64,000 bases of DNA. It comes from Raillietiella orientalis. Taxonomy: Eukaryota. The translations under genes were made by a program, and so were the position numbers. A model generated the notes under the pieces. That model was given only the letters and a program-made list of their open reading frames with translations. It was not told the DNA's origin and made no database searches. The stretch is from NCBI GenBank assembly GCA_036172245.1, contig JAYWIR010000087.1, positions 124,001 to 188,000 on the forward strand, read 5' to 3'. Of the stretch, positions 20,146-60,918 are shown piece after piece. Numbering within the stretch: the first letter of the stretch is position 1; each line of letters begins with the position of its first letter.

Positions 20146-20153
20146 TGATGCGT

Positions 20154-33730: not shown

Positions 33731-36700
33731 AGGAATTGAGGCGTCCGGCTGAGGCGAAAGGACCGGAAACTCCTGAGTCCGAAGCCGAATCCGGCAACGC
33801 TGCGGCTGTCGCTCTCCCGTAGCGCAAAGCAGGCCGAAAGGTAAGCAACCCGCGGAGCCCCGCACCTGCAGCGGCGGAGGAGGAAATGAGGTCGGACCAC
33901 GACGACGGAGAGGCGATGTCCGCTAGGTCTCGCGACTCCTCGCCGGAGGCGGTCCAGGCCAAGCAGGATCCTTAAACAACCATCACAACCACCGATGGAC
34001 CACCTACTTGCGATCAAATCGGTCAGCTTGTTGCCAAGTGGTCCGACGCAATCGACCTCGTCGTGACCAACGTGTACGCGCGCGGCACGAGCCACAGGCG
34101 CGAGGAACGCACTGCGTTCTTCGAAGGCCTGCAGCGAGATTGGCTGGCCGAAGCAGACATGCGAAAGGCGCAGCTCATTGCCGGGGACTTTAACGTCCGC
34201 CTGCTGGCAGGTGCGCCCGACATTCGCGCACAGCTGGTCAACGAGATGAGCGCTGCCATGCACGCGCGCAACTTGTTGGCCGGTGACGCCGGGACGGAGA
34301 CGAGGATCGACCACATGTTCCTCGACAACCACCTGTGTTCGCGGGTGGGAAATCGAGGGGCAGTGCCATCCGAACTTACCGACCATCCTCGACTCGTGCT
34401 AGAAATACACCCGCGCGGTAAAGGTCCACCCTCCACAGCAAGTTGTTTGCCAGGGGACTGGTTGCGCCTCGCAGGAGCAGCGCAACATCTTCACTCGTTT
34501 CTGCAAGGCTTCCATCTGCAGTCGCTCGCGGACTGGGACGACTTGAAGAGCTCAGTTTGCGAGTTCTGCGACCAGTTTCCCTTGAACCGTCTCTTTCGAG
34601 GTTTCGGCGTTGTCACCGGGGTACGCCCAGGGCGTTTATTTGTAAACTTAACATGCGTGGTACGAGGCCCCACCACGGACGTAAACACAGGACCTGTCGG
34701 GACACCGCGACGCAGCCCGGCGTTGCACTCTTCAGCAACGAAGAAGGATGGGGATAAGACAAAAAGAAAAATAAAAAGAAACAAAGAAAAAGAAGTTGGA
34801 GGGCAGGGAAGGGATCACTGGACGCTGTGGGGAGAGCCCATCCGTCGAACGAAGCCTTCGAAGTCTGTCTGCATATTTTCCAGTTGCGGCCATCCGGCAG
34901 CTCTTTGCAAGAAGCGTTGGGCATACAGGATGACATCGCTCGCCTGTGAACCCACTCCTTCGTTGTTGGCTTCGCTCCATGCCGCCACGATGCCACAGAC
35001 GCAGCACAAGGCTGCGATGGCTGAGGCTGGCAGCAGTGGGTCCTTCACGAAGAGGGGCCGAAGAATGCAACTGGGTGTGCTGCCTGTAGGTAGCCCGAGG
35101 GTCGTCCCGAACCGTTCCCAAAGGGGTCGGAGGGCACCACAATCCACAATAAGGTGGGGAAACGACTTCCGCTCCGCGAACCTGGCACACCCAGTATTCA
35201 CAGCTCCCCTCGTCTAGTGGAAGTGATGCGCGTTGCAGGGTAGACCCCAGTGCAACAGGAGCAACGTCGACTCTTGCCACTTGAGGGGTAGGATCCTGGA
35301 TTCTTTCATCACCGGGGGCCACTTCAGGTCATCCCTAGGGATGGCGAGCAGCTCGCCCCATCTTACTAATCCTCGCGCATGGACCCTCGGGGTCGTGGCG
35401 TCGGACAGTTCTCCTGTTGTTCAGCCGCTAATCAACTTCTCGCGTCCCTTGATGCAGCAGGAGACTTGCCACCTTCGCGTTCGTCTGCTGTGAAGTGCCC
35501 TCCTAAGGAACAACACCCCAGTCCCTAGGCATTTCGTCTCTGCCCACGTGCATCTTGCTGGACTCTCCAGGAGATTCCGCAGCGTGCAGCGGGCGTAGGG
35601 GCTGCATCGGAGACGATTCCACGTTTCGTGACTCTTCTGATTAACCGCTGCCCACGTTCCAATATTCTCCTCCAGCAAGGCGGGGAAGTTGGCAGGGCCA
35701 CAAATCATCCAGTCGTTCTCCTTTGTCAGGGTTACCATGCGGCCGAGCAGTAGACCGCATCTTCGAATCTTCCGACGAGGGCACAGAAGAAACGATGCGT
35801 GTCTTTCGCAGCGGGACAAACGCCTGGCCAGGAGGCGGGCGGGAATGCACCAAGCGGTGCTCCAGATCTTAGCTGCGATGGCGAGGGTCCGCCATCGCAG
35901 CTGGATTTCCACGCGCTTTAGCGTCAGGAGGCCAAGACCGCCGTCCCGACGCGGAGTGCACAAGTCCTTTAGAAGGACTCGGGGCCTCCCTTTTCCCCAA
36001 AGAGCTAAGCGGAGGAGGTCCTTGGTCCGCTTTTTAGATTTGACGGGGCGGGGCAAACAAAAAGCAAGGGGCGGAGGATGTAGGCCGCGAAGGCGTTCCA
36101 AACCGCGGCCCGTTCCGTCAAGTAAAACTTGCCTTCCAGGAACGGGCCGATCGCCGTCTCGACTTTTTGGAGGCAGCTGGACCACGCTTCCGCAGGGGAG
36201 TAGTCCCCCAACGGCACATCGAGGTACTTGTTGCACCTCGCCGTAGGGATCCCCAGACGGACCCAGTCCTTCTGCTATACCCACGTCGCTCCAACTGGCT
36301 ACAAAGACGACTACGCCCTGTTAACCTGTAATCCGGCCCAACGGCTAATTAGGTAGAAGAAATCTCCGACCGCCTTCGCCGGGGTGGATATAGGTAAGAG
36401 GAGCAGAAGATTGTCGGCATACGCCGCTACGGCTGGCGGGCCGGGGCACGAGCTCGGCAAGGGGATCAAAGTCACCCTGTACGCTCTCAGCACCAACTCA
36501 GCGTAGGTGCTAAAATGCAGGGGGCTTAGGCTGTCGCCCTGCCTTATGCCCCGCCGCACCGGCACGCCATACACCTTTTGTCCACTGAAAGTAATTCAGA
36601 TTATAGCGTTCCGTTAGCAAGAGCGCAGGTAGGTAATCAAGGATGGTGGGAAGCCCATGCGACCCAGGAGCTCCAAGAGGAGTTCCTAATCAACACAGTC

Positions 36701-37540
36701 GAATGAATTATGGAGGTCGACTGCGATCGCTAAGGCCTCCTCGTCCGCATGAGGGTCCCTACCCTGTCCCACTGGCGGCCCCAAAGTAGGGTTGCAAATT
36801 TTCCCTTTCCCGTCTTTCTTACTCCGCTGCGCGTGCATCCATGTGCTCGCGAAGAAGAGGTTCTCCTCCATACTTCGCCTGCGAACAGCGTATGTCTGCT
36901 CCGGGTTAATTATGGAATTGGACACCTGCTTCAATCGCCACGCCCACATCCCGGCAATCAACATGGCGTCCGTGTTCACAATCGTGATCGGGCGCCAGTT
37001 GCAAAGCTTGCTGCAGTCTCCTCCTTCCGGGAGGAGCCTTGCCCTGGCTGAACGAAAAGAGGCGGGAACCTCACCTTCGTCTCGGATTCGCCTTGTCATC
37101 TCGAGCACCAGGGGGGCCAGCACTTCCGCGAAACACTGAAAGAACTCCGCGGGCAAGCCGTCCTCCCCTGGCGCCTTACGCCTCTTTAGAATTTTGATAC
37201 CGGCGAGAATTGCACCGGTCGTGAAAGGCTCATCGAGGCTTTCTCTCTCCTCCTCCCCTATCGCCACGGAACCACTCATGAGCAATCGCCGCGAGGCGTC
37301 TTGTTCGGGTGGAGTTTTGGCGTAAAGCGAGGAAAAAAAACACCGCACGAGATTCCGTACCGCCTGCGGGGACGAAGGTTCTTGGCCCAGGTCATCCAGC
37401 ATGCTGGCTGACCCGCATTACCAGGCTTGTCGCTCGGCTCCGGCGCGGTATTCGGCCAGACGACGGACATTGGGGTTCCTCTCGTGACCACGCGCGTGCA
37501 AATACGCGCGTTCCTAGCGGGCCCCTTCACCGAATTCCCG

Positions 37541-37565
37541 CTGTGGAGGAAGGACGTGCTTTTCC
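37541..37565 (+). promoter_or_regulatory. Conserved 5'-terminal GGACGTG(C/T)TTT motif, candidate internal promoter element (representative copy)
   Basis: Found within ~12 nt of most 5' junctions across divergent families. The function is inferred. Confidence 0.5.
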
Positions 37566-37768
37566 TGCGCTCCGCCTGCGTGGCAAAGCGAGTGTTATTT
37601 CTTCTTGAGTGATTTGTGCGTGCACATCGTCGGTGTACGATGGCAGCGTTGCCAGAGGACACCGCGATTGAAGTAGGCGTGGGGGATGCTTGTTAGTCCC
37701 CACAGCCTACTGGATCTGGGGCATCCGTCCCGGAATCGTCCCCGGCGACCCCGAGGTCATGGAGCGCC

Positions 37769-39514
37769 ATGGTGGCAGCGCCTAGCGTTGAAGCCATGGC
37801 CGAGATGGAAGCCTACAACAAAGCGGGTAATAAACTCTCGCTAGTCTACAAGGTAGGCAACCTTTTCGATGGGCGAACTGCACGCGCCTTTACGAATGCG
37901 CTGCAGAACGCCAATATCTTCGAAAAAGATCTTGACGGCCTCTGCGTCCTCAGCGGCGGGCAGCGGGTCGAGGTGGCATGCAAGGATATCACCTTGGCCC
38001 GACGCCTGATCACCGACCCGCTGATCGTTGATGGTCGCAAAATCTTAACGGTGACGATGGACCGCTCTGTGGTGGTCCATCTCACTGGGATCTCCAGTCG
38101 AATGACTAGGTCAGCGGTTCGAGAACAGTTACAAAAGCAAGGAGAAGTGCACGCGTTGTGGCCGAAGTCCACGATTTTCCAAGGCTACAATAGCCTTTTC
38201 GGAGGTCAAGCTGCGGCGCGTATCACAGTAAAAGAGGGTGCAGCGCTTATCCGCAAGCTGGAGGTCTGCCAAGAAACGGTGGACCTCTTGTACGTGGGGA
38301 AACGCCAATTTTGTGGCTACTGCAATGCAGCAGGGCATGTACGAAAAAGGTGCCCGAACATTGTGTGCCACCTATGCGGCGAAAAGGGTCACGTTCGGCG
38401 CGTGTGCCCCAAGCACCCCACCCCGGTGCCCCTTGCTGCCAAAAAGGCGCAGGGAAAACGTGGAAAGCTGGTAGAAAGACCACCTTGCGAAAATGGCCTT
38501 TCCCAACTGCCAGCCTCCCTTCCTCCCGTACAGACGTCGGAGGAAAGAGCTCTTGTGAACGCGGAAATGGAGGAGGGTTGGCAGCTGGTTCAGGCCAGAA
38601 AAGAGAAAAAAAAGAAAGTGATGCCAGAAGAAAAGTCGGAGAAGAAAACTGCCGGCAACAAGAAAAAAGCCGCGCCGCTTTCAAAAAAACAACTCCGCGA
38701 ATGCTCGGTGGCACTGGAACGCTTAGCCGTTCCTGCCGAGTCCGCCCGCGGCAATGTTCGCGGAACAGCTGATGCGGACGCGATGAATACTCGCGTGGAC
38801 GAGACCATTCTACGTTTAAAGGGTGAGACGCGAGACTCGCGCGCCGACAGCAAGGACGCCGCGCTCGATAAAGTCGCGGAGGAGCCCGCGGCAACGTTCG
38901 CCGTCAGCGATGACGCCGCGCTCGATAAGGTCGCGGAGCAGCCCGCGGCAACGGTCGCCGCTGGCGAAGACGCGGCCTTCGAGAAAGCGGCGGAGGAGCT
39001 CGCAGCAACGCTCGCCGAGCGCGAAACCCCGTCGCGCAAGGGCGTACGCTGGTCGCTTCCGACGAAAAAGGCCCCCGCAGGTGAGTGCGACCTGGGGGCT
39101 GGAAGAGGATCCTTCTCCTTGGAGGCACCCCTCAGGAAGTCGGGACGCAAGTTCCAGAAACCCAGGAGGCGCCTCCCCTCCACCAGCGAAAAGGAGAAGC
39201 CGGAAGGAAGCGGCAGCGTGGCAATACCGGAGGGGGAATACCCACGCCCGGAAGCCGTCGAGTCAGCCACCGCCATGGAGAAAGGTGAGCAGGGGGGTGA
39301 AGTCCTCCCTGCACTCGCGAAACCCGAGCAGCCCGAACCCATGGGGGAGGGCGAACAGGCAGGCGCGACTCCAGCTGCGGGTGATCCGGCCGACCCTCCG
39401 GCACCAATGGAGGAGGAGGAACAGGTGCCTTCAGTACCTGTTCCCCCTCCTCCTCCACCTTGCGTCCCGCCCCAGCAGGTGGCGGACGCCGCATCGCCGT
39501 TTACCCAGGACTAA
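37769..39514 (+). CDS. ORF1 gag-like protein, family A (two CCHC knuckles, basic and acidic/Pro-rich tail), N-terminus cut by an upstream stop
   Basis: 581-aa ORF with CGYCNAAGHVRKRC and CHLCGEKGHVRRVC. Confidence 0.85.
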   Translation: MVAAPSVEAMAEMEAYNKAGNKLSLVYKVGNLFDGRTARAFTNALQNANIFEKDLDGLCVLSGGQRVEVACKDITLARRLITDPLIVDGRKILTVTMDRSVVVHLTGISSRMTRSAVREQLQKQGEVHALWPKSTIFQGYNSLFGGQAAARITVKEGAALIRKLEVCQETVDLLYVGKRQFCGYCNAAGHVRKRCPNIVCHLCGEKGHVRRVCPKHPTPVPLAAKKAQGKRGKLVERPPCENGLSQLPASLPPVQTSEERALVNAEMEEGWQLVQARKEKKKKVMPEEKSEKKTAGNKKKAAPLSKKQLRECSVALERLAVPAESARGNVRGTADADAMNTRVDETILRLKGETRDSRADSKDAALDKVAEEPAATFAVSDDAALDKVAEQPAATVAAGEDAAFEKAAEELAATLAERETPSRKGVRWSLPTKKAPAGECDLGAGRGSFSLEAPLRKSGRKFQKPRRRLPSTSEKEKPEGSGSVAIPEGEYPRPEAVESATAMEKGEQGGEVLPALAKPEQPEPMGEGEQAGATPAAGDPADPPAPMEEEEQVPSVPVPPPPPPCVPPQQVADAASPFTQD

Positions 39515-40529
39515 CACCTGGGCTCGCCAGTCGCCGTCGGATTCGCGCGGCCTGATGGAACGTCAACGGGCTGCGCGACGACGGCAACAGGCGAGATACG
39601 GCGGACACCCTGCGTGAGCTCGACCTGGCGCTGCTGCAGGAGGTCCACGTGTTCACCGCGGCAGACGCCCAGAAGATCGAGTCGATCGCGGGGGGTCGGC
39701 TGTATTGGCGATGCGGCCTCCGCAACACCTGCGGGGTCGCGTTCTTCGTGAAGCCGGCCATCGAGGCTGCCGTAAAGGGCGTGCGGTTCGATGACGACGG
39801 TCGGATCGGTCAGCTGATTCTCAGCTGGTCCGACTCGATCGACCTAATCGTCACAAACGTGTATGGCCCCAGCGGCGAAAAGGGGTACCGCGACCGCACT
39901 AGGCTGTTGGAAATCCGGAAGCACGACTGGCTGGCGGATACCAATGTGCGAAGGGCTCACCTGATAGCGGGAGATTTCAATCTCCGCCTGCTAACAGGTG
40001 AGCCGGAAACACAAGTGAACGCGATGAACGAGTTGTGCGCCGCCATGCGTGCGCGCAACTTGTTCGCGTGTGAGAGCGGAATGGTCCACAGCATCGACCA
40101 CGTCTTCCTCGACGCTGACCTGTGTTCACGCGTCGGCAAACAAGGCAGGGTTGTGTCTACGTTGTCGGACCATTCCCGGCTAATTTTCGAGATGCGGCCT
40201 CGCGACAAAGGACCGCCATCCAGGGATTGGGGTCTGCCGGGAGACTGGACGCGACTCTCAGGTGCGAAGGAACGCTTTCGCGAATACATGAGAAGCGTCA
40301 CGCTACGGAATCTCCATTGAAACCCGGGTGCGCCGGGACGTTTATTCTAACGAATAAACTTATACAATCTGTGACTGGACCAGTAGTCCAGCCACGCCCT
40401 GGAAAGATATAGCCTGCCGGGCTACCGGTGCGCAGACCGGCGCGGTCGACCTCGGCAGCAGAGGGAAGGGGGAACGAAACAAAAAGAAAACAAAAAATAA
40501 ACAAAAATCAGGGAGGGAGCGGGAAGGGA

Positions 40530-43500
40530 TCACAGTCTGCTGGGAGGGGCCGTCATCCTCTGGAGGATGCCGGCAAGCTGTTTCTGCTTGTGTGGTTCCA
40601 GATGGGGCCATCGCGTCGCCATCCTGAGGAAACGGGCAGCATACACGTTGGCATCCCTGTCGCTGGATCCTCCCGTCGCTTTGCTCCATGCCACGACGAT
40701 CCCGCGTAGGCAGCACAGGGCTGCAAGCGAGGCCGCTGGAGGCAGGGCGTCACGGACGAAGAGGGGGCGCAAAGCGTCTCTGGGGTTGCCTCCGGGGATC
40801 CCCAGGGCTGCGGCAAAGCGTTCCCACAAGGGACGGAGGGCAACACAATCCACTAACAGGTGGGGGAGGTATTCCCTCTCCCCGCACCTGACACAATAAG
40901 GGTTGACACCCCCCCGCGTCCAGTGGTGTCGGCGGGCGTTGCAAGGAAGCCCCCAATGCAACACCATCAGTGCCGACTGTTGCCACTTCATGGGGAGGGT
41001 GCGCGAGTCCATGAGCACACGAGGCCACTCGAGATGTTCCTCTGGAACATCCAGTAGCTCTCCCCAGCGCAAAAGTCCATTTGGGGTGGTCCTCGGGGTC
41101 GCAGCGTTGGTGAGCTGACCCTTTCTCCAATCCCCGATCTTCTTTGCCCTGCTGGCGATCTTGACAGTAACCTCCCATTGTGCCGCGACGTCGCTGCCCA
41201 GATGTTCCCGTAGGGTAGGAAGTACCGCAGCAAGGGAGGTTCTTTGTGCCCACGCTCTCCTTCGGGGATTCTCGATGGTTTCTCGGAGCGTGCGGCGGGC
41301 ATGCGGCCCGAACAGAGCTATTCGCTCGTGTTGCGGGCTCTGCTCCTGAATCATCGCCCACGTGCGGACGGTTTCCTGCAACCAGGCAGGACCGTTCGCG
41401 GGGCGTAGGAGGATCCGCGCCGAGTTGTTCTTCACGAGCTCGGCCGCCCTCCGAAGTTGAAGTCCGCAGTGGCAGATGGGGCTTCGGAGTGCAAAGTAGG
41501 ACGAGAGTCCCGCATTGCCGGTGGCCCGCTCGACGAGGAGACGTGCAGGGAGGAACCAAGGGGTGCACCAATTTCCTGCCATAAAGGCAACAATTCGGGA
41601 CTGGAGCTGTAGCTCCAGCCGCTCCAACGTCAGGAGGCCCAGACCACCATCCCGACGAGGAGCGCACAAGTCCGAAAGACGGACTCGGGGCCTCCCTCTG
41701 CCCCAAAAGGCGATCCTCAGGAGGTCCTTCGTCCTCTTCTTTGACTCCGCTGAGGGGGGGCAAACAAAAAGCAAGGGGCGAAGCAGGGGGGACGCAAACG
41801 CGTTCCACGCCGCGGCCCGTTCCTGCAGGTAGAACCTGCCGTCCTGGAACGGGCCGATCGCCGCCTGAGCCTTCTGAAGGCAGCCGGACCACGCTTCCGC
41901 AGGTGAGTACTCCCCCACCGGCACACCAAGGTACTTGAAGTACCTCACCGTGGGGATCCCCAAACGGACCCAGTCCTGCTGCCCTGCCCACGCCGCTCCG
42001 ACGGGCATTACGGACGACTTCGCCCTGTTCACCGTCAGTCCTGTTCCACGACTCAGCAGGTCGAAGAAGTCCTCGACCGCCGAGGCCGGGGTGGACATAG
42101 GCAGCAGCAGCAGAAGATCGTCCGCGTACGCCGAAACCGCAGGCGTACCGGGGCAATCGCACGGCAGGTGCGCAAGAGTCTCCCTATACGCTCTCAGCAC
42201 CAATTCGAAAAAGGCGCTAAAGAGCAGGGGGCTCAGGCTGTCTCCCTGCCGTATGCCGCGTCGCACCGGTACTCCGTGCACGGTTTGCCCGCTGAAAAGA
42301 ACATTAATGAGCGCGTCGCGCCAGCTGGAGCGCAGGTAGGCCAACAAAGAGGCCGGGAAGCCCAAGCGTTCCAGAAGCTCCAGCAGGAGATTCTGGTAGA
42401 CGCTGTCGAATGCTTTACGCAAGTCGACAGCGACCGCAAGGGCTCACTTCCCCACCCAACCGTTCCGTCTCCCGCCAACGGACGCACCGGAATTCCGGCT
42501 GCTCAATAAGCCCCTTCCTTGTTGGAGCTCTAACCATGTGGAAGTGTGGAACAGGTTCGCCTCCATGCTCCGCCCGGGAACAGCGTAAGTCTGTTCCGGG
42601 CTGATGAAGATGTTGGCGACCCGTCGCAGGCGCTCTGCCCACATCTTGGCTATCAACTTGGCGTCCGCATTCACTATTGTGATGGGACGCCAGTTGTTCA
42701 TGCTCCTTAGGTCTCCTCCCTTCGGGAGGAGCCGCACCTTTGCTGAACGAAACGAGGTGGGAACGTCACCTGTTTCACGGATCAGCAAGGTGAGTTGATG
42801 TACCAGGGGAGTAAGCTCAGACGCGAAAGTTTGGTAAAACTCCGCAGGCAGGCCGTCCTCCCCTGGAGTATTCCGCCTCTTGAGCTTTCCGATGGCCGAG
42901 AGGATCTCGTCCATCGTGAAAGGCTCATCGAGGCTTCTTTTCTCCTCCTCCTTGAACGCTGGAGCACCTTCCGGAAGCAGAAGTCGTGAGACGTCTCGCT
43001 CCGGAGGCGCCCTGGCGTACAGGGAGGAGTAAAATTTTCTTACTATCCCGCGTCTCTGAGCAAGAACCGAGTGCTCCCAGCCCTGGTCGTCCAGCAAGCT
43101 GGCTGATCCGGATTGCCAGGCTTGCCTCTCGGCTCCCGCTCGATACTCTGCTAACCTGCGCATGTCGAAGGATCTCGCGTAACGTCGGGCCTGAAGATAG
43201 CACCTTTCGTTACGCGGCCCCTCCCCAAAACCCGCAGGTAGGCGATGCAGGGGGAACTGATCGCAGAACTCCTGGACCGACCGCTTGAAGCGGTCCCAGT
43301 CCTGAAGTGTCTGCATCCTGAAGCTCCGAATAAACGCGCGGAGGTGCTCCGCCGCGTCGGGAAACATCAGCCAGTCCCCTGGCAGACGCCACGCTGACGA
43401 GGGGGGGCCCTTGTCGCGCGGACGGATTTCGAACATGATCCGACCATGGTCCGACAGCTCGGATGGTACCTTGCCGCGCCTGCCCACCCGAGAGCATAGG

Positions 43501-43960
43501 TGCTTATCAAGGTACACGTGATCGATGCTGCTTTCCATGGCCGTGTCCCCGGCCAACAAGTTGCGCGTGTTCATTTCTGCGCACAACTCGTTGACGCGGT
43601 CGTTCAGTGTATCCGGCGCACCTGAAAGCAGGCGCAGGTTGAAATCACCTGCGATCAGGTGCGCTTTGCGATCTCCTGCATCGGTCAGCCAGTCGCGTCT
43701 CAGGGCAAGGTAGAATTCCCTTCTTGCCTTCGCCTTCAACGCGTTATTTCCGCTAGGAGCGTATAGGTTGGTGACGACCAGGTCGATAGAGTCGGACCAG
43801 CTGAGAGTCACCGGACCGACGCGACCTGCGTCATCGAACCGAACGTCCTTTATTGCGGTCTCGATGGCTGGCCGAAGCAGGAAGGCGACACCGCTTGATT
43901 TCGCGGTGCCGCAACGCCACAACAGCCGCCCACCCGAGATCCGTTCGATCTCCTGCGCTC
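40530..43960 (-). pseudogene. ORF2 EN-RT-zinc finger of layer 3, interrupted near its N-terminus, one frameshift near 42440
   Basis: ORF 42444-44156 (from AQEIER: NLYAP, GDFN, IDH, SDH, NNWRPIT) and ORF 40530-42422 (KAFD, GIRQGDSLSP, YADD, KYLGV, CVRC..HLLVDC). Confidence 0.92.
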
Positions 43961-44076
43961 GTACAGTGCAGACGTGTTTCCGCGTCTTTCCGCGCCAACG
44001 ATCGGGCAACTTTGTGCCTGCGTTTTTGCTCGCACTTGTGTGTTCCTGTGCAATCTGCCAAGTAGCATAGTGCAAC

Positions 44077-48900: not shown

Positions 48901-49552
48901 TTGCCTACCGGCGGAATGGGAGTTCTCCTGCAAAATATCGGGAGTCAGTAAGCTCCTCGGCAGCTGGACGACAAAGGAGCTGGTGCAAGCCGCCACACCT
49001 CGGAATCGGGCGAAGGGACTGCTTCGGTGGAGCGAACATTTAAGTGTGCCCCCCGGAGAGATAGTGTTTCCCCCCGTTTGTTTGGACAGCTCCGTGTTCC
49101 CCCTTAAGTGGAAACAAGATGTGCTGCTCTTTTTACATTGTGCATTTCACTGTAATAGGCAGCGAAGCATCGTTTCCGGGGGAGCTGCTTTGCCAAACTG
49201 TTTAAGGTGCGGAGAGATCGAGTCTTTTCCGCACCTTTTTTTGGACTGCGGTGACCTCCGGGAACTGTGGCGAAGGCTCACTTCGGCCATCATGCCACAA
49301 GGAGGCACTGCCATTGATGTGCTGCGGCGCTTCTTCAGCAGAAATGGACTTTCGGTTGGCGCGATTGTCGCAACCATGTGTTGCGTTCGCGCCATCGTGA
49401 AGGCCCACTATGCCCTGGAGTTGTCATCGCAGCGAAGGGAGGCTCACCTGCTTGCAGCTCAATTCATGGAGAAGGCTTCAAGGTGGTCTCATCTTCGTGA
49501 CAAGGTGAATGAGGACATCACCGGCATACATCGCCGGTTTACACACCTTTGA
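45981..49552 (+). pseudogene. ORF2 AP endonuclease / RT / CCHC finger, frameshift near 46915 and stop near 47040
   Basis: EN is in ORF 45978-47048. ORF 47288-49552 (754 aa) has AVDLHKAFD, GIRQGDSLSP, YADD, RYLGV and CLRC..ESFPHLFLDC. Confidence 0.93.
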
Positions 49553-49879
49553 GAACGGCGTAATCCGGTGACCCCGGCGACCTCTCGCCCACCCATACCC
49601 CGTCCCCGTTCGCTCGGTAAAATTTCCGGTGCCCATGCTTTTATCCCCGTGTCTTCCAGAGCGATCCCAAAGACCCTTATCCCGTCCTCCTGATTCATTG
49701 TTTTTATTTTATTTTGGTTTCTTTGTGTTTCCCGCCCCCCCACACCGTTCACAAAACTGTTACTCTGGCCTGCCTGCCAGCAATATTCTCTTCATTCTTG
49801 TTCAGTCGTCGGTTGGGAGTTTGGTTCCCAACTGGTTTATTTTGTATAATTGCTTTTTTTTTTTGGTTATGTTATATGG

Positions 49880-49909
49880 AATAAACGCCCCGGCGTGACC
49901 GGGTGAGAA
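49880..49909 (+). other. Conserved 3'-terminal AATAAA plus CCCGG-N5-CCGGG stem-loop (representative copy)
   Basis: Recognisable at 11 element ends in the window. See findings. Confidence 0.8.
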
Positions 49910-50072
49910 ATCTCCCGGGCTTGATCTGCGGAGATTACGTGGATCTCCTTCAGCATCACCAGGTCGAAGGATGCCAGGGTGGCGGCCACGTCACGCCTCT
50001 TGCCGTCGTCGCTTAGCCCGTTCACGTTCCAACAGGCGATCAGAAGATGACGGCGAGAGGCGATTCCCGGCA

Positions 50073-51731
50073 TTATGGCTGGGAAAGTGGCGCCGCGGCA
50101 CCTGCCGCGGGGCAGGTGTACGGAAGGTCCATCGGTACGAGGACCATCGGAACGAGGACGGAAGCCTCTTCAGGCGCCTGGGGTACCTGTTCGGCCTCCA
50201 TCCTCACCATCCCCTCTGTGTCCGAGCGTGGAATTCTCTCGGGCGACGGATCCCGGGAGTTTCCCACGCTCATGGCACCCTCGCTACCGGAAGCCATCTC
50301 TTCCCCTTCGTCGTGGTAGACGATCTTCCGGGGCATTGTGGACTTTCGTCCTGCCTTTTTGCGGGGTGCCGCGGAGATGGATGCTGTGTTTCCGGCCTTC
50401 ACCTCGGGGTCGGAAGTGGCCGACTCCTGAGGGGAAGCCGGACGCCTGACGGCCCTCTTGCCAGCCTTGGGGGCAACCGGCTGCAGCGAGGCAGCCAGCT
50501 CCTCCGCGGCGCGCTCGAAGGCGACGTCATCGAACGTGTGCTCGATGACGGTCGCCGCCGCCTCGCTCCCCTCCTTGGTGACTTTGTCAAAGGAGGGTTG
50601 AGCAGGGGCAGCAGCGAGTTCTTTAGCGCCGCATCCGTCGATGGCGGGAATCCGCTCTACAACGACGCAGCAGCTTTTAATTTTTTCGCGGCGCAGAGCG
50701 GTTTCGCTCCGTTTCGCCACGTTCTTTCCCTTCTTATCGGAGTTTTTCTTGAGGTCGACCTTCTGCCACCCTGGCTCTTGACCCGCGCCCTCGACCTTTT
50801 TGGCGTTTTTCGTCGAAGTGTCGGGGCTGGCCTTCGCCTTGGTGGCGGAGGTGACCTCCTTAGCAGCAGCACGAGTTGCCAGCTTCTTTCTCTTTTTTGC
50901 CGCGCGCTTTCTCGCGTTTTTCGCGGACACGACGCGGACTGTGTTTTGGGGGCACACCAGACGGGTGTGCCCCGCTTGTTTGCATTGCTGGCACTGTACG
51001 CTCGGACACCTCACTTTAAGGTGACCAAAGCTGCTGCCGCAGCCGCAAAACTTGGGTTTCTCCACGTACCACACGTCAACGGATTCACCGTTGACGGTGA
51101 GTTTGTGGGGAATCTTACATCCCTCGCAAACCGTCACTCGCGCTGCACTCAGGCCGCCAAGCATCCCGTCGTAATCGACAAAAGGAGTAGGCTTGCCCCA
51201 CAGCGCGTGGACAGTTGCGAATTTTTCCAGTTTGTTCCGGACGGCCTCCTCCGTCATCCGGAACGTGATACCGGTCAGGTGAATGATCACCGACCGGTCT
51301 TCTGTTATTGGGAGAAGCCTCCGGCTGCCCATACTTACGGAGGTTCGCAGAAGTCTCTGCGCAAGAGTTGCCTCCTTGCAGATAACTTCCACAAATTGAC
51401 CTTCGCTTCTGACGGACATAGCCAGAAGCTCCTCTTTTTGTACACCGAGAGCGCGCATCGCCTGCGAAAAGGCGCGCGCGTTCTAGGGAGAATATAAACC
51501 GCCTACCTTATATAGAAGGGGTGGGTTATACCCCTCCTCCAGGTAAGCGCGCATTTCCGCCATAGCCGCTGGCGTAGGTGCCGAAGCCACGGCGTTCCAA
51601 GCCCTGGGTAGGGCCGGGGGCGCATCCGTGCTGGCGGGAGCCTCCACTGATGCGGGAGCCCCCACCTCCATCTCCTCCGGGGGCAATGAGGTCATCACTC
51701 CCGGATCCTCACCGGTGGTGGTATCAGGCAT
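50073..51731 (-). pseudogene. ORF1 gag-like protein of layer 3, one premature stop
   Basis: ORFs 51483-51731 and 50073-51458 are in the same frame. They include GYNPPLLYKVG and CQQCKQAGHTRLVC. Confidence 0.85.
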
Positions 51732-54700
51732 TGCTGCCTAATCCTCCACCCACACCACGCACAAGCACCAACGGAAATATAACTCAGCAGCAACGAAAAG
51801 ACACGTCCGCTCGACGCTCCGGAATCTCCAGGACTGGGACCTTCTTAAGGAATCGGTCAGGGAGTACTGTGAGTAGTTCCGTCTGGATCGCCTGCCCCCG
51901 GATTCGGCGTAGGTGCTCGCAACCATCGGGCTTATTTACAGGCTCGTAGGTACGAGAGAACCCCTAATGTCCGTCGCCTGGCAGAGCACCGCGCCGGGAC
52001 CGAAAGCCAAGCCTGGCAATCCGGGTCGGCCAGCTTGCTGGACGACCAGGGCCGCGAATGTTCGTCCCCGGCGTCGGTATGGCATCTTGTGCGGAGTTTT
52101 CAATTCTATCTTTACGCCAGGGAGCTCTCGGATACAAACGCCTCTCGGCGCATGCTTTCGGATGGCGTCCCGGCAATAGAGGTGAAGGAGATGGAAAGCC
52201 TCGAAGATCCTTTTACCACCGGCGAGATTCTCGCCGGTATCAAAACGCTCAAGAGACGTAAAGCTCCAGGGGAAGACGGCTTGCCCGCGGAGTTCTTTCA
52301 GAGCTTCGCGGAAGAGCTGGCACCCCTGCTTCTTAAGTTGATCAGGCTGATCCGAGACGAAGGAGATGTTCCCGCCTCGTTTTGTTCAGCCAGAGTGAGG
52401 CTCCTTCCGAAAGGGGTAGACCTCAGGGATTTAAAGAACTGGCGTCCGATCACGATCGTGAATACGGACGCCAAGTTGATAGCAGGGCTATGGGCTTCGC
52501 GTCTGGGGCAGGTAGCACAATCCGTAATCAGCCCGGAGCAGACTTATGCTGTTCCCGGGCAAAGTATGGATGCCAACCTCTTCTTCGCAAGCATATGGGT
52601 GCACCAGCAGAGAAGAGAAAAGAAAGGGATAGGGAAAGTCGGCAACCCAACATTGGGGCCGCCAGCCGGGCTGGGAAGGGAACCCGGGCGGGAAAGGGGG
52701 CTCTTGCGCTCGCAGTCGACCTCCACAAAGCGTTCGACTGTGTAGACCAGGAACTCCTCTTGGAGCTCCTGGGTCGCTTGGGCTTCCCACCCTCCCTTAT
52801 TTCCTACCTGCGCTCTTGCTGGCGGAATGCGATGAGTACCGTCTCTTTCAGCAGCCAAAAGGTGTATGGCGTGCCGGTGCAGCGGGGCATAAGGCAGGGC
52901 GATAGCCTCAGCCCCCTGCTCTTCAGCACCTACTCTGTGTTGGTGCTGAGAGTGTACAGAGTGACTTTAGCCCCATTGCCGAGCTCGTGCCCCGGCACGC
53001 CCGCCGTATCAGCGTACGCCGACGATCTTCTGCTTTTGTTCCCAATATCCACTTCGGCAAAGGCGGACGGAGACTTTTCGATCTGCTCAGCCGCGGGACC
53101 GGACTGCAGGTTAACAGGGCGAAGTCGTCGGTTGTGCCAATAGGTGCGGCGTGGGCAGGGCAGCAGGAGTGGGTCCGTCTGGGAATCCCCACGGCGAGGT
53201 GCTGCAAGTACCTTGGTGTGCCGTTGCGGGAATACTCCCCTGCGAAAGCGTGGTCCAGCTGCCTCGAAAAAGTCGAGACGGCGATCGGCCCGTTTCTGGA
53301 AGGCAAGTTTCACTTGCCGGAACGGGCCGCGGTTTGGAACGCCTTCGCTGCCTCCATCCTCTGCCCCTTGCTTTTTGTTTGCTCCCCCACAGTGGAATCC
53401 AAGAAGAGGACAAAGGACCTCCTCCGTATCGCCATTTGGGGAAAGGGGAGGCCCCGAGTCCCACTAAAGGACTTGTGCGCTCCGCGTCGAGACGGCGGTC
53501 TTGGCCTCCTGACGCTGGTGCGCGTAGAGAAGCAGCTGTGGTGGCGAACCCTCGCCATCGCAGCGATGATGTGGAGCACCCCTTGGTGCACTCCGGCCCG
53601 CCTCCTGGCCAGCCGTGTGTCCCGGTGTGATGGACTCGCGTCTTTTCTTCTGAGCCGTAGCCGGAAGATGCTAAGATGCGGCCAACTGCTCGGGCGCATG
53701 GCAACATTGGCCAAGGAGAACAGCTGGATGGTTTGCTGCAACGCCAACTCCCCCGCCTTGCTGGAGGAGAATATTGGAACGTGGGCAGTAGTTAACCAGA
53801 GAAGTAACGAGACGTGGAATCGTCTCCGATGCAGGCCCTACGCCCGCTGCACGCTGCTGAATCTCCTAGAGAGTCCAGCAAGAAGCACGTCCGCAGAGAC
53901 GACCTGCCTAGCTACGGCGCTGCCCTTCCTAAGGAGGGCACTTCACAGCACCCGGACGCCAATGTGGCAAGTCTCCTGCTGCATCGTGGGACGCGAGAAG
54001 TTGATCAGCGGCTGGACAACAGGAGAAATGGCCCAAGCCACGACCCCGAGCGTCCAGCCGCGAGGATTATTAAGATGGGGCGAGCTGCTCGCCATCCCCA
54101 GGGATGAGCTGAAGTGGCCCCCTATGATAAAAGAATCCAGGATCCTGCCCCTTAAGTGGCAAGAGTCGGCGTTGCTTTTGTTGCACTGGGGTCTACCCTG
54201 CAACGCGCGCCGCTTCCACTGGACGAGGGGAGCTGTGGATCCTGCGTGTGCCAGGTGCGGTTAGCGTGAGTCGCTTCCCCACCTTATTGTGGATTGTGCT
54301 GCCCTCCGACCCCTTTGGGAACGGTTCGGGAGGACCCTAGAGCTCCCTACAGGCAGCAACCCCAGAGACGTTCTTCGGCCCCTCTTCGTGAAGGACGCAC
54401 TGCAGCCAGCCGCAGCCATCGCAGCCTTGTGCTGCGTCCGTGGCATCGTGGCGGCATGGAGCGACGCCAACCACGAAGGAGTGGGTCCACAGGCGAGGGA
54501 TGTCATCCCGTATGCCCAACGCTTCTTGCGAAGAGCTGCCGGATGGCCCCAACTGGGGAATATGCAGACTGACCTCGAGGGCATCGTTCGACGGATCGGC
54601 CCTCCCACAGCGACCAATGATCCCTTCCCTGCCCTCCAACTTCTTTTTGTTTGTTTCTTTGTATTTTACTTTTTGTCTTATCTCCATCCCCCTTTGCTGT

Positions 54701-57700
54701 GGGGAAGTGCCACGCCGGGCTGTGTCCCGGTGTCCCGACAGGTCGCGTGTTTACGGCCGTGGTGGGGCTCGTACCACGCATGTAGAGTTTACAAAGAAAC
54801 GCCCCGGGCGTACCCGGGTGACAACGCCGAATTCCCGGGGCAGACGTTGCACTGGGAAGTGTTCGCAGAACTTCCGGACTCAGTCCTTAAATAGGTCCCA
54901 ATGTGCGAGACTCTGGAGGGTGACGCCTAGCAGGAATTCGCAAAGATGTTCTTTCGCTCCTGACAGGCGCGTCCAGTCTCCTGGCATACGCCAATCCCTG
55001 GATGGCGGTCCCTTGTCGCGCGGGTGCATCTCGAATAATAACCGCGAATCGTCCGACAGCGTCGATCCAAGTGTCCCTCGTTTTCCGACCCGTGTGCACA
55101 GGTCTTCGTCGAGGAAGACGTGGTCCACGCTGTTGACCATCCCGCTTATTTCTGTCAACAAGTTGCGCGCGCGCATGGCGGCGCACAACTTGTTGATCGC
55201 GTTCCCCTGTGCTCCGGGCTGATCTGAGAGCAGACGGACGTTGAAATCCCCTGCTATCAGATGCGCCTTTCGCACGTCCGCGTCCACCAGCCATTCGCGC
55301 TTTAAGGTTTTCAGTAACGCGTTGCGCTACTGGTATTCCTGTTTACCGCTAGGAGCGTACACATTGGTGACGATGAGGTCGATCGAATCGGACCATCTGA
55401 GAATCAGTTGGCCGATCCGTCTGTCGTCCCCAAAGCGCACGTCCTTCACGGCCGCGTTAATGGCTGGCTTTAGGAAGAACGCGACCCCACAAGTGTTGCG
55501 GGCGCCGCATCGCCAGTACAACCGCCCTTCTGCGATCGTTTCGATCTCCTGGGCATCTTTTGCGGTGATCACGTGGATCTCCTGCAAAAGCACAGGGTCG
55601 AAATCTCGCAAGGTGGCGGCTGTATCTCGTCTGTTTCCGTCGTCGCGCAGCCCGTTAACATTCCAATTGGCCGCGCGGATCCGACGGTGACAGGAGAGTC
55701 CGGCTTCCGGCGAAGGGCTGAGGAACGATTGGGCATACCACCAAGCCCTCGTTACTCTAGGACTTCCGACGTTTGAGGCCTGGCTGAGTATAAAGCTGGG
55801 GTTGAGCCACAGACCTTACAATCAAGGTCGGCCAGCTTGCCGGACGCCCAAGGCCAGGAATGCTCAGCTCCGGCGAAAATTAACCGCATCCTGCGGGACT
55901 ATTACTCCTCCTTGTACGCGAGTAGAGCAACAGAGCGCGTTGTGGCGCAGCGCTTGCTGCCGCAAGGCGCCCCCGCGCTACAGGAGGAGCAGGCACATTA
56001 CTCGAGGAGCCTTTCTTGAAGGCAAAGATCGTCTTCGCCATCGGAAAGCTCAGAAAGAGGAAAGCACCTGGGGAAGACGGTCTGCATGCGGAGTTCTACG
56101 AAGGCTTCGTGGCATAGCTGGCCCCCCTGGTGCATCGGCTTTGCATGCTGATCCGAGAACAAGGGGACGTCCCCAAATCGTTCCGGTCAGCTAGAGTACG
56201 TCTCCTGCCGAAACGAGGAGACAATCGCAACGTAGGCAACTGCGTCTCATCACAGTAGTGAATGCGGATGCAAAGTTGCTTGCCAAGCTTTGGGCTGAGC
56301 GACTGGGAAGGTTGGCGGAATTCTTAGTGAGTCCGGAGCACACATACGCTGATCCCGGACGAAGCATTCAGGCCAACCTGTTCCTCCCCTGTACATGGTG
56401 GCAGTTGCCACAAAGCGAAGACCAGGGAGGTCAAGAGAATCCAGGATTCTCCTCTGACCAGAAAAGGGACGCCCTTCATGGAAGAGCCGCGCTCGGTTCC
56501 CTTGCGGTCGCAGTCGATCTGCGTAAAGCGTTCGATTGCGTCGACCAGGAACTGCTTCTGGAGCTCCTGGAACGCTTGGGATTCATGGCTGTCTTTTGGG
56601 CTCAGCTGCGCTCCTGCTGCGCTTCGCTTTAATAAACATCTGTTTTAGCGGCCGGCACGTGTACGGCGTGCCGGTTTGGCGTGGCATAAGGCAGGGGGAC
56701 AGTCTGATCCCCGTGCTCTTCAGCATCTACTTCGAGCTGGTTCTGAGGGCATCCAGGAAGACTCTGGCAACCCTGCCGAGCTCGTGTCCCGGCACGTCTG
56801 CCGTGTCGGCTTACGCCGACGACCTTCTTCTCCTCCTCCCCGGGTCCATTGCGGCGTCGGCGCTCGAAGATTTCTTTGAGTTGCTGCGCCGCGGGACGGA
56901 CCTCGAGGTAAACAGAGAGAAATCTTCCATCGTTCCAACATCACCACTACTTTTAAACAATACGGCGTGGGCCGGACGGCCGGACTGGATTTGCTTGAAG
57001 ATCCCCACGGGCAGGTGCTTCAAGTATCTTGGCGTTCCCTTGGGGGACTTCTGCGTTGCAGAAGGCTGGTCCGACCGTCTCCAAAAGGTGGAGTTGGCGA
57101 TCGACCCGTTCCGGAACGGCAAATTTTACTTGCAGGAGCAGGCCGCGGTGTGGAACGCGTTCGCGGGCCCCCTCCTTCGCCCCTTAATTTTTGTTTGCCC
57201 CGCCCCTCCCATCATACAGACACGGAACGAAGCCTTCTCGAGGACTGCCCTTTGGGGCACAGCGAGGTCGCGAGTCCGATTGAAGGACTTGTGCGCTCCA
57301 CGCAGGGATGGTGCCTTGGGCCTGCTTACGTTGGAGCGCATTAAACTACAAACAACACTTCGAAAGTTAGCCCCTGCGGATAGCTTATGGATGATGCCAT
57401 GGTGCGATCCGGCACGGCTCCTTGCCAGATGGGCGACCTGGTGCGAAGGATTGCCCTCGATCCTCGTGGCCTACCAGCGCAGCCTCTCGAACTGTGGCCC
57501 TGATTTGCGCCATATGGTCGCCCTGATGAGGGAGAATACCTGGATCTCCTGCATCCCCGCGAACTCCACTGCCTGGCTTCAGGAGTCAGCTTCCGCATGG
57601 GCTAAGATCAACGGCACGAGCGAGGGGGAATACAACTGCCTACGACGAAGACCGTACGCTCGACAGCCGCTGCAGGAGATTATCAACACGTTCCGGAAGT

Positions 57701-58684
57701 TTCTATGGGCTTCTTTTCGCCCCCTTGCCCCCGTTCTGTCGTCCTTAAAAAACACTAGGAGCAGCAACGAGCGGGCATCGTGGGAAGTGACCTGCCTCAT
57801 ACAAGGCATGAAAAAACCTTTAAAGGCGTGGACGACTCGGGAGCTCACGGACGCTGCCACTTCGAACGTCTCGCCTCACGGACTTGCGCGCTGAGGAGAG
57901 CTGCTCGCAATACGTCTGGAGGCGGAAAAGTAGCCCCAAGCGTGTCGGGATTGTGGCACACTTCCCTAGAAGTGGCAGGAGAAGACGTTGCTATTTCTGC
58001 ACTGGGGACTGCTATGCAGAGCACGCCTGTCTTAGTGGACACTGAGAATGTGGATGCCCGCTGTGTCGAATGCGTTAAAAGAGGAACCTTCTTGCATCTC
58101 ACCCTCGAGTATGTCGCCCTGGATTGATTCTGGAGTCGAATTGCCCCAATCCTCCATCTTGAAGTAGGCGACCCTAAGGAAATTTTCCGTCGCCTCTTTC
58201 TGCGTGACGGCCTGCGCCCCGCTGCGTCTCTAGCAGTCCTCTGCTGCGTGCGCGGCATTGTGCAAAGGTGGCACGCAAGAAGAAGAGGCCCAGGATGCAA
58301 GGACGCCATGCACTAAACAAGGATCTCTTTGGAGACGGCGACAAGGTGGCGTCTACTCTTCACAGTGAAAGCAGAACTTGTCTGAATCCTAAATAGGATG
58401 CGAAGGACTGAACCAGGCGTTTAGTGATCCCTTTCCTACACCTTACCTCCTAATAGAACTGTTTTCCACCCGGTTATCTCTCTTTTTGTTTGTTTTCGTT
58501 CTAGTTTTTCCTTCCCATGCGCCTCGGGAATGGATCTAACCGTTCTTTGCACCGGCAATCGACACGTCAAGCAAGGTGGGAGAACTCAGTGCTTCCTTAG
58601 AGAATACATTTTTTTTAAGAGTTCATTATGTAAGTTTTGTTAAAAATTATTATAATAAATGTCCCGGCATATCCGGCTGACAAA

Positions 58685-58890
58685 CGGCGAACGCAATTAT
58701 TGTGCGCTCCGTGGATAAACAGTTTTTTCTCTGGTGTTTCTTGTGTGTTTCGCGTCCGTTGACAGGCAGAAATGCCTGTGAACGCCGCAGTTTCAGGTGA
58801 GAAAGGCGAGAAGACCGCGTCTCCCAAGCCAAAGGAGGTGGGATCACGCCACACCACTACTTTTGAACCTTCCTTAGCCACTACGGTGTC
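58685..58890 (+). mobile_element. Short 5' UTR and ORF1-start fragment, near copy of 22935-23135 in reverse
   Basis: GGCGAACGCAATTATTGTGCGCTCCGTGGATA..ATGCCTGTGAACGCCGCAG matches the 5' end of the family C element at 23135. Confidence 0.8.
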
Positions 58891-60909: not shown

Positions 60910-60918
60910 GTTTCAACG

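Follow-up and report, generated by a model that had tools for sequence, protein, structure and literature searches.

A cluster composed entirely of LINEs in Raillietiella orientalis, with a nest of five alternating layers and a fixed insertion site of one lineage within ORF2

The window analyzed here, a stretch of 64,000 nucleotides from Raillietiella orientalis (GenBank assembly GCA_036172245.1, contig JAYWIR010000087.1, positions 124,001 to 188,000 of the forward strand), is a LINE-only cluster, in which L1-like elements with an APE endonuclease (EN) and a reverse transcriptase (RT) are stacked into each other. Based on tblastn and the resulting map, the whole 64 kb consists of LINE pieces from approximately 19 copies, and no non-LINE sequence was found within it, which bears out the gene-free site proposed by the initial annotation. 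The copies belong to at least 4 lineages that are 55–70% identical, including those termed alpha, beta, gamma, and delta, and to a fifth one without endonuclease. Pfam matches were obtained for 12 of the 22 long ORFs between 33.9 and 57.9 kb (RVT_1 in 7 ORFs, Exo_endo_phos in 4, zf-CCHC in 2, with 1 ORF harboring both RVT_1 and Exo_endo_phos), and the other 10 had no match. ORF2 of three elements of the nest described below (L4, L3, and L2) contains both the APE-type endonuclease (PF03372, E 3e-12 to 5e-13) and the reverse transcriptase domain (PF00078, E 4e-20), as does the uninterrupted element E. Furthermore, TSDs vary in length (5–17 bp), LTRs are lacking, and several copies (L1, L0, r7, and G) are 5'-truncated. 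The closest solved structure for ORF2 is human L1 ORF2p (E 3.5e-36, compared to 7e-14 for R2). The best protein database relative shares 60% identity (one JGI protein) and the rest at most 31%, with no Zepp-named or algal-named protein among the matches. A protein profile search of JGI metagenomes gave 35 pattern matches, 0 of which were confirmed, and 8 loci with the 3' hairpin pattern of the window elements were rejected as chance matches, as neither tblastn nor blastn revealed LINE sequence related to the window in any of them. Since CpG observed/expected lies between 0.92 and 1.09 in every copy, there is no methylation-type decay gradient.

Five of these copies form a nest, here numbered from the outermost (L0) to the innermost layer (L4). 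L0 (33731–58683, +; pieces 33731–34610 and 55701–58683) is a 5'-truncated, E-like beta element with a 3' hairpin at 58657–58676, and its 3' end adjoins the 5' end of another copy, J. It is interrupted at its G-F-G-E site by L1 (34611–55700, −), a delta element 5'-truncated at the start of EN, the pieces of which comprise RT to the 3' end (34611–37540) and EN (54825–55700). The G-F-G-E site of L1 in turn harbors L2 (37541–54824, +; pieces 37541–40316 and 51814–54824), a full-length delta element of 5770 bp when rejoined. Within the linker between EN and RT of L2, approximately 50 aa past the SDH motif, lies L3 (40317–51813, −; pieces 40317–43961 and 49910–51813), a full-length gamma element with a rejoined length of 5535 bp. 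Finally, L4 (43962–49909, +), a full-length alpha element of 5948 bp with ORF1 at 44221–45981, EN at 45948–47048, and RT at 47042–49552, is inserted in L3 at EN aa ~64.

When the three L4 ORFs were used as tblastn queries, the order and strands of the five layers (+ − + − +) given in the initial annotation were reproduced exactly. The hits correspond to EN aa 108–318 (+) followed by RT (+) from 55885 for L0; RT (−) at 34839–37354 and EN aa 9–307 (−) at 54826–55716 for L1; ORF1 and EN aa 7–280 (+), then EN aa 276–359 and RT (+) from 51814 for L2; and RT and EN aa 62–344 (−), then EN aa 1–67 and ORF1 (−) from 49906 for L3, while L4 showed no interruption. The TSDs claimed for the four inserts were recovered with the same values at the junctions, namely 11/14 for L4 (14-bp copies at 43948–43961 and 49910–49923), 16/17 for L3 (ACGCT[A/C]CGGAATCTCCA), 12/13 for L2, and approximately 9/11 with one indel for the degenerate ~11-bp TSD of L1. 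Matches this good are rare among 40,000 random site pairs with ±3 nt slack, occurring 93, 5, 14, and 257 times, respectively. In silico removal of each insert together with one TSD copy left an open frame across all four joins, as had been proposed, and the protein sequence read through the joins agrees with the corresponding region in other families. Once restored, L2 and L3 align collinearly over both joins with E, which has no interruption. Moreover, the expectation that rejoined halves belong to the same family holds for L0, both halves of which are E-like, as well as for L1 and L2, the halves of which group together in EN and RT trees with support of 1.0. The five layers are the outcome of four successive retrotranspositions, each into the preceding arrival. 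Within the nest, it is also correct that 4/4 inserts are antisense to their host, with L4 lying in the EN domain of L3 and the remaining inserts in the EN-RT linker of their hosts.

The ages of the layers were assessed from in-frame stops and frame changes in ORF2. This damage amounts to 0+1 in L4 (besides a border stop at 47039), 1+0 in L3, 4+3 in L2, 11+1 in L1, and 6+5 in L0. The inner layers are younger, and the damage grows outwards, but L0, the outermost layer, which looked the most decayed in the initial annotation, is affected to about the same degree as L1. An empty site for the youngest insertion was found in the public run X1, one contig of which joins 43947 to 49910 (depth 5, 36 nt on the shorter side) and is an L3-type copy without L4, plus one 14-bp TSD. 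X1 sequence furthermore shows one more T following 46910 and has C in place of T at 47039, and the L4 copy of the window has therefore undergone a 1-nt deletion and acquired a TGA stop. X1 is the one DNA run found to contain window sequence (share 0.35); no RNA run was present among the matches listed, and runs X2 and X3 were discarded because they gave only spurious pieces of 18–23 nt.

Insertions into resident copies are found in the remainder of the window as well. C (3689–9579, −), a full-length alpha element of 5891 bp, is located at the G-D-F-N codons of EN with the short repeat TTGAAAT and has the same orientation as the two flanking pieces, D and B. Of these, the former is delta-like and the latter gamma-like, so that the host of C is a chimera. 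B also contains, antisense and at RT aa ~133, the delta-type copy A1 (1–2697, +; 3' end at ~2697), which has two internal deletions. The beta element I (21912–23135 and 14947–16330) is split by a second, full-length beta element, E (16331–21911, −), inserted in sense orientation in the C-terminal region of ORF1 with a TSD of ~8/11. The fifth LINE, M (25002–29285, +), is antisense in NH, which like C and r7 is an alpha element. M is very divergent (RT ~31% aa identity to L4), comprises an ORF1-like ORF and an RT ORF without APE endonuclease, and is flanked by a perfect 16-bp TSD (24986–25001 and 29286–29301). No motif common to the insertion sites of L3, L4, C, E, I, r7, and M was found; a candidate cross-lineage target motif (CGG[G]AAT..., GA[A/G]AT^C), noticed post hoc, does not fit r7, E, or I consistently and is therefore not proposed here.

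A second nest occupies 9580–16330, where the 5' part of L2' (D, 9580–12019, −) lies in L1' (12020–14946, +), which lies in L0' (the part of I at 14947–16330, −). Compared to the first nest, L2' is 91.4%, L1' 79.5%, and L0' 91.6% identical, and L1 resembles L2 and G more closely than it resembles L1'. Because the divergence is uneven (92/80/91% from L0' to L2'), the two nests appear to have been built independently, and duplication of the L0-L1-L2 block as a single segment was rejected, while gene conversion could in principle be a source of such unevenness. At the other end of the window, G (60919–63020, −), a 5'-truncated delta 3' part, and F (58888–60909, −), a 5' part that extends as far as EN aa ~67, are arranged head to tail, with F beginning 9 bp after G and the 9 bp between them (60910–60918) being a delta-site remnant. 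J (58684–58887, +), the first 204 nt of a beta element, which share 91% identity with the start of I at its 5' end, begins immediately after the 3' end of L0. It was considered whether the break of F records another alpha insertion at the position used by L4; since it is ~7 nt off and flanked by ORF1 of J instead of a 3' end, it was not counted.

The delta lineage, comprising L1, L2, L1', L2', G, and F together with the delta-type copy A1, stands out by its insertion sites. In 6 of 7 cases, a count from one 64-kb window with small numbers and sites picked after seeing the data, delta elements are inserted at one and the same nucleotide, TTCGGCG^A on the host sense strand, within the G-F-G-E codons of the linker that connects the EN domain to the RT domain. 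In L1, the site (one TSD copy at 54825–54837, −; host sense strand ...CGGGAATTCGGCG^A) codes for (E/G)-F-G-E and is located ~83 aa past the endonuclease SDH motif. The same position was used at 34610/34611, 14946/14947, 12019/12020, and 60910–60918, the nick position being common to L1 in L0, L2 in L1, L1' in L0', and L2' in L1'. The host of G is lost, and its event therefore rests on the 9-bp remnant. At the 3' junctions of L1, L2, and L1', and of G with its remnant, ...ACA(A) is followed by CGCCGAA[A/T][C/T]C, and the 5' junctions of L2 and L2' are identical (...CCGAATTCCCG followed by CTGTGG). The target motif, which is present in delta and beta elements, is kept in 10/11 aligned hosts, and the hosts used are 66–92% identical to one another. 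Similar unoccupied sites are found in L2 itself, with a 1-nt deletion in the site, and in E (CACCGAAGCC). A1 is the sole delta insertion off the G-F-G-E codons. Independent insertions thus share nucleotide and orientation, as in site-specific LINEs, and delta insertion is targeted to one fixed site. To judge from the junctions, the first nick would fall on the host sense strand, and the delta endonuclease itself probably reads the site.

All 8 aligned 3' ends of window elements consist of a GC hairpin and ANAA, followed at once by target sequence, without A-run or poly(A). The terminal hairpin is conserved in all lineages, with compensatory changes in 0/5 pairs, and together with the ANAA it would fit recognition of a specific 3' end.

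We consider it likely that the window is best explained as a LINE-only nested cluster driven by sequence-specific self-homing of the delta lineage. The delta machinery would nick a resident copy on its sense strand, after TTCGGCG, in the protein-constrained G-F-G-E codons of the EN-RT linker, prime reverse transcription at this nick, and cut the second strand 11–13 bp away. Because the target is on the host sense strand, which by standard target-primed reverse transcription (TPRT) would be the primed strand, the new copy would be forced into antisense orientation. A full-length insert would bring its own intact target in flipped orientation, so that the next hit flips again, resulting in the alternating layers L0/L1/L2, and the TSD would restore the site beside the insert, allowing tandem reuse (G, then F). 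The insertions of L3 into L2 and of L4 into L3 each represent one event, by an element of a different lineage and elsewhere in ORF2; their antisense orientation may be due to chance.

Across the window, the patterns of the nest do not extend to a general rule. The window map contains 13 host-resolved insertions, of which 9 run antisense to their host and 4 share its orientation (C in D/B, E in I, I in NH, and NH in K), and 4 of 12 placeable events lie outside EN and linker (1 in RT, A1 in B; 3 in ORF1 or between ORFs), so that neither alternating antisense insertion nor the EN/linker position holds universally. Both results could be read as elements being steered only to a type of chromatin, e.g., a centromere, and landing randomly inside it, with alternation and EN positions arising by chance and nests forming automatically because the region contains nothing but LINEs. 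It is in line with this that the whole window is LINE sequence, that without the four delta-site events 5 antisense insertions face 4 sense ones at sites in ORF1, EN, linker, and RT, and that 4/4 antisense in the nest alone corresponds to p = 0.06. However, six delta events at one nucleotide in hosts of 66–92% identity are impossible by random landing in a 5.8-kb element. We therefore regard regional targeting as an unlikely explanation by itself, while it may act in addition to delta homing.

The initial annotation had suggested that the families target each other's endonuclease gene, which can be extended to a mutual arms race, in which the lineages have each evolved to attack the EN gene of the others, knocking out competitors and gaining a safe site. 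Three cross-lineage inserts in the nest (an alpha element in a gamma host, gamma in delta, and delta in beta) agree with this, as do 8/12 placeable events in EN and linker, approximately 21% of the element, or 5/9 when distinct sites are considered (hand binomial ~0.02, post hoc). What remains of the suggestion is the fixed site of delta; 2/6 delta events strike delta, which makes this self-homing as much as cross-targeting, and no targeting is demonstrated for L3 or L4, since each is a single event. Furthermore, alpha (C, r7, and NH) and beta (E and I) insertions occupy quite unlike positions, with sense orientation and ORF1 locations among them. As any conserved codon block is a durable target, selection for harming rivals is unneeded, and an arms race seems quite improbable to us. 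Concerning the reality of the nest, an origin by inverted or segmental duplication, repeat recombination, or misassembly could be suspected from the presence of a 6-kb inverted paralogous block, the lineage chimera at the D/C/B join, the internal deletions of A1, and the lack of a contig across the nest junctions among the 8 X1 pieces listed. It is contradicted by TSDs at 4/4 inserts far above chance, open frames over the joins, rejoined elements collinear with an uninterrupted one, lineage agreement between the halves of L0, L1, and L2, ORF2 damage growing outwards, and the empty-site contig in X1. Moreover, assembly collapse is unlikely because the lineages differ by at least 30%. A false nest is thus very improbable.

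Site-specific LINEs are established in rDNA (R1/R2), in a DNA transposon (Tx1), and in telomere repeats (TRAS/SART). Like these, the delta elements insert repeatedly at a single nucleotide of a conserved target that exists in many copies, keep a fixed orientation, and have a 3' end that is non-poly(A) or specific. In contrast to these systems, the delta target is the ORF2 coding sequence of its own and a sister lineage, so that with each insertion one copy is lost and a new target gained. A literature search for self-targeting or antisense site-specific LINEs found no report on point. Zepp of Chlorella/Coccomyxa and ZeppL-1_cRei of Chlamydomonas are described, in the sections of the accounts drawn on here, as L1-type LINEs found almost solely in nested clusters, in which new copies target existing copies, with one cluster per chromosome that is thought to be centromeric (Blanc 2012, PMC3446292; Craig 2021, PMC8226300; Craig 2022, PMC9940879). 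The parallel to Zepp drawn in the initial annotation is justified for the nesting of copies in one another, but the window elements end in the hairpin and ANAA, whereas Zepp and L1-1_CR are listed with poly(A) (Table 1 of Ohshima 2012, PMC3472496), so that the likeness is behavioral only. Furthermore, 3/4 nest inserts are full length and orientation alternates, in contrast to the tandem, mostly 5'-truncated 3' ends in the description of Zepp arrays consulted (PMC8226300), and the lineages sharing this one cluster differ from the single ZeppL family that the cited section reports for Chlamydomonas (PMC9940879). The HeT-A/TART/TAHRE elements, according to the part of the account used here, form head-to-tail telomeric arrays by additions at chromosome ends (PMC5537684). 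Accumulation only beside earlier copies is common to both, with tandem abutments here between G and F and between L0 and J; unlike these elements as portrayed there, the window insertions are internal, nested, and provided with TSDs.

By analogy with the algal clusters, the cluster described here may be centromere-like. A wider reading, which we put forward as speculative and rather doubtful, is that a guild of at least 4 deeply diverged LINE lineages persists only by mutual ORF2 homing: with delta cutting to the nucleotide at protein-constrained G-F-G-E codons, which hosts could not lose by mutation, the array would renew itself and inactivate older copies, antisense inverted repeats could give rise to dsRNA silencing the guild, and the endonuclease-less M would ride on the nicks of others.

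Self-nesting LINE clusters are putative centromere marks in several green algae, and the cited accounts, in the sections considered, state that new copies "target existing copies" (PMC3446292, PMC8226300, PMC9940879). Set against these accounts, delta nesting is a more precise form of such self-nesting, the rule of which is legible from the sequence as a fixed sense-strand nick site in a conserved ORF2 codon block and offers a testable target, TTCGGCG^A. This site rule alone would have the consequence that elements avoid genes, arrivals kill the host copy, orientation alternates, and tandem runs arise, and several old lineages can occupy one such niche together. If the cluster is a centromere and the guild reading is true, this would amount to a sequence-encoded rule for the growth of a transposon-built centromere without spread into genes.

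LINE sequence fills the whole window: tblastn with the three ORFs of L4, the innermost element of a five-layer nest, gave matches on both strands spanning bases 2-63998, and about 19 LINE copies account for every base in a map of the window, with a GC content of 53-62% across the window in 2-kb steps. Pfam matches were obtained for 12 of the 22 long ORFs of the nest (RVT_1, 7; Exo_endo_phos, 4; zf-CCHC, 2), including one ORF with RVT_1 and Exo_endo_phos together, and the other 10 had no Pfam match. Human L1 ORF2p is the solved structure nearest to the reverse transcriptase (RT; E 3.5e-36, compared to 7e-14 for R2 proteins). The top database protein is 60% identical, with all others at 31% or less.

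The order and strands of the nest, as described in the initial annotation, were recovered exactly by tblastn with the L4 ORFs. From left to right, the nine pieces are residues 108-318 of the APE-type endonuclease (EN) of L0 (+, 33731-58683); RT of L1 (-, 34611-55700); ORF1 and EN residues 7-280 of L2 (+, 37541-54824); RT and EN residues 62-344 of L3 (-, 40317-51813); the complete L4 (+, 43962-49909); and then, on the same respective strands, EN residues 1-67 and ORF1 of L3, EN residues 276-359 and RT of L2, EN residues 9-307 of L1, and RT of L0. The proposed junctions and flanking repeats (TSDs) were likewise borne out, with 11/14 (L4), 16/17 (L3), and 12/13 (L2) matches, and the L1 pair, of approximately 11 bp, has 9 matches and one indel. 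Equally good matches arose by chance 93 (L4), 5 (L3), 14 (L2), and 257 (L1) times per 40000 random site pairs, which were drawn from the same repetitive window with a freedom of ±3 nt. After in silico excision of each insert together with one TSD copy, an open frame crosses all four joins, as had been claimed, and the protein text at the joins aligns with the homologous stretch of other families (e.g., VTL(R/Q)xLxxWDL in L2, L1, and L0). Copy E, which is uninterrupted, shows collinearity across both joins with L2 and L3 once these are rejoined (5770 and 5535 bp, respectively). Three layers, L4 (5948 bp), L3, and L2, extend to full length and carry the motif G[G/A]ACGTG[C/T]TTT common to full-length 5′ ends; L1 and L0 are 5′-truncated.

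Identity among the five full-length elements is 65-74% over EN and RT, and much of ORF1 is unalignable. The same four lineages are recovered in trees of the RT block (1439 columns) and of the EN block (585 columns): alpha (L4 and the copies C, r7, and H), beta (E, L0, and its counterpart L0′), gamma (L3 and copy B), and delta (L2, L1, its counterpart L1′, and copy G). Rejoined halves from different families, set out beforehand as a refutation of the nest, were not seen for L0, L1, and L2 in these trees: both halves of L0 cluster with E (support 0.97 for EN and 1.0 for RT), and L1 and L2 cluster with each other in the EN tree and in the RT tree (1.0 each). The halves of L3 were judged solely by the open frame, the TSD, and a contig from the public DNA sequencing run X1 that matches both sides. 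ORF2 damage, scored as in-frame stops plus frame changes, amounts to 0+1 in L4 (plus a border stop at 47039), 1+0 in L3, 4+3 in L2, 11+1 in L1, and 6+5 in L0, a pattern that agrees with the inside-out arrival order. Damage is greater in the outer layers, but L1 and L0 are roughly equal.

Related sequence is present in the public DNA run X1 (95 contigs, 38 at least 99% alike and 57 at 95-99%). One contig (depth 5, shorter side 36 nt) links 43947 straight to 49910; since the 5962 omitted bases correspond to L4 (5948) plus one 14-bp TSD, this contig is the empty L4 site. No contig bridging junctions of the five-layer nest was present among the 8 X1 pieces listed. Furthermore, X1 has an extra T after 46910, where L4 of the window shows a 1-nt gap in a T run relative to other families, and a C at 47039, where the T of the window creates a TGA codon. 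These differences indicate that intact relatives have a single ORF2 spanning EN and RT and that L4 of the window is nearly, not fully, intact. As even this youngest element carries a deletion and a stop, an intact ORF2 is found in no window copy.

Self-comparison matched 34018-37535 to the reverse complement of 51902-55416 (81%), 9579-15543 to that of 34014-39982 (85% over 6 kb, two junctions included), and 60908-63010 to 34599-36702. CGCCGAA[A/T][C/T]C directly follows the 3′ ends of L1, L2, and L1′; the 5′ junctions of L2 and its counterpart L2′ are identical, with CCGAATTCCCG running into CTGTGG; and after G come CGTTGAAAC and, immediately, the full-length 5′ end of copy F. In host sense orientation, this site reads TTCGGCG^A, codes for (E/G)-F-G-E, and lies in the EN-RT linker, approximately 83 residues beyond the SDH motif of the endonuclease; the G-F-G-E motif is kept in 10 of 11 aligned hosts. 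Six of seven delta insertions occupy it, the exception being the delta-type copy A1 (1-2697), which ends at approximately 2697 inside B, at RT residue ~133. Judged by these junction sequences, the delta lineage is site-specific. Targeting, proposed for several families, is demonstrated for delta only; L3 and L4 are represented by a single event each. A1 itself has two internal deletions, one from EN residue ~88 to RT residue ~2, which takes out the stretch containing the homing sites, and one from RT residue ~284 to the last ~145 nt.

A plain duplication of the first nest was considered as the source of L0′, L1′, and L2′ (9580-16330) and was ruled out by uneven identities (L0/L0′, 91.6%; L2/L2′, 91.4%; L1/L1′, 79.5%). 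Because divergence is uneven and the identity of L1 is higher with L2 (83.4%) and G (82.9%) than with L1′, the same nest architecture arose at least twice.

Target-primed reverse transcription uses the nicked strand as the primer for cDNA synthesis. In the sense strand of the host, the complement of the insert 3′ end comes directly after TTCGGCG, which places the first nick on the host sense strand and makes the insert necessarily antisense. A full-length insert would then supply a new, inverted target, yielding the alternation of L0, L1, and L2, and the 11-13-bp TSD would restore the site adjoining the insert, so that tandem reuse (G, then F) would be possible. We infer that the delta endonuclease itself reads the site. 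The 3′ terminus is conserved in all lineages (AA[A/T]AA[A/C/T]G-CCCGG-N5-CCGGG-..ANAA), which suggests specific 3′-end recognition, and an A-run is absent from the 3′ ends of all lineages. The 5 stem pairs of a 3′ hairpin are invariant and, because they never vary, this structure is only putative. A near-identical terminus, AATAAACG-CCCGG-N5-CCGGG-TG-ANAA, occurs in all four lineages, at the 3′ ends at 3689, 16331, 33217, 34611, 40317, 49909, 54824, and 58683, although the other 3′ UTR sequence is unalignable between lineages.

A second deep nest of about six layers occupies 1-33730 (K > NH > I > L1′ > L2′ (D/B) > C, where I is L0′), with E in I, M in NH, A1 in B, and r7 at the K/NH junction. 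This nest is a mirror of the reported one, and each lies in or beside copies of K, so that the reported five layers have more outer layers (K and J). Strict alternation holds within the five-layer nest but not across the cluster, where 9 of 13 host-resolved insertions are antisense (L4, L3, L2, L1, L1′, L2′, A1, M, and r7) and 4 are sense (C in D/B at G-D-F-N codons, E in I, I in NH, and NH in K); leaving aside four delta-site events, there are 5 antisense versus 4 sense. The host of L0, for which only the 5′ flank (K) fits, was excluded from the counts. Similarly, confinement to EN or the EN-RT linker is true of the nest but not of the cluster, in which the 12 placeable events comprise 2 in EN, 6 in the linker, 1 in RT, and 3 in ORF1 or between ORFs. 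Among distinct sites, 5 of 9 fall in EN plus linker, a region of ~21% of the element (hand binomial ~0.02, post hoc). All counts come from one 64-kb window, are small, and concern sites picked after inspection.

A fifth LINE, M (+, 25002-29285), is very divergent (RT ~31% amino acid identity to L4) and has a perfect 16-bp TSD on either side (24986-25001 and 29286-29301). It has its own 3′ hairpin, an ORF1-like ORF of 389 residues, and an RT ORF of 659 plus 230 residues, but no APE endonuclease domain; M may depend on nicks by other lineages. X1 contains a junction between an M-like 3′ end, reverse-complemented, and position 45322 (in ORF1) of an L4-type copy. C (3689-9579) lies in sense orientation between D (9580-12019) and B (2698-3688), with a 7-bp repeat (TTGAAAT) and a frame open through G-D-F-N. 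Its flanks differ, D being delta-like (91% to L2) and B gamma-like (74-79% to L3), and reflect either a recombinant host or recombination between two C copies, one in each of two hosts, at the same site. Several elements meet end to end: the truncated 5′ end of r7 and the 5′ end of NH at 30771/30772 (TSD GCGAC), the 3′ end of L0 and the 5′ end of J at 58683/58684, the 3′ end of G and, after 9 bp, the 5′ end of F at 60909-60919, and the truncated 5′ end of G and the 5′ end of K2 at 63020/63021. Such precise placement of newer inserts against the ends of older ones suggests occupied-site reuse or template jumping.

Zepp and Zepp-like LINEs are described as nesting their copies in clusters, of which each chromosome has one and which are considered centromeric (PMC3446292, PMC8226300, PMC9940879). 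Poly(A) ends are listed for Zepp and L1-1_CR (Ohshima 2012, PMC3472496, Table 1), whereas the window elements have none, and a single ZeppL family is reported for Chlamydomonas (PMC9940879), compared to at least four old lineages in this one cluster. In a full-text literature search, no description of such a fixed site or orientation was found, although the original Zepp papers might contain one. The cluster can be likened to Zepp in behavior, but its elements lack poly(A), a defining Zepp feature.
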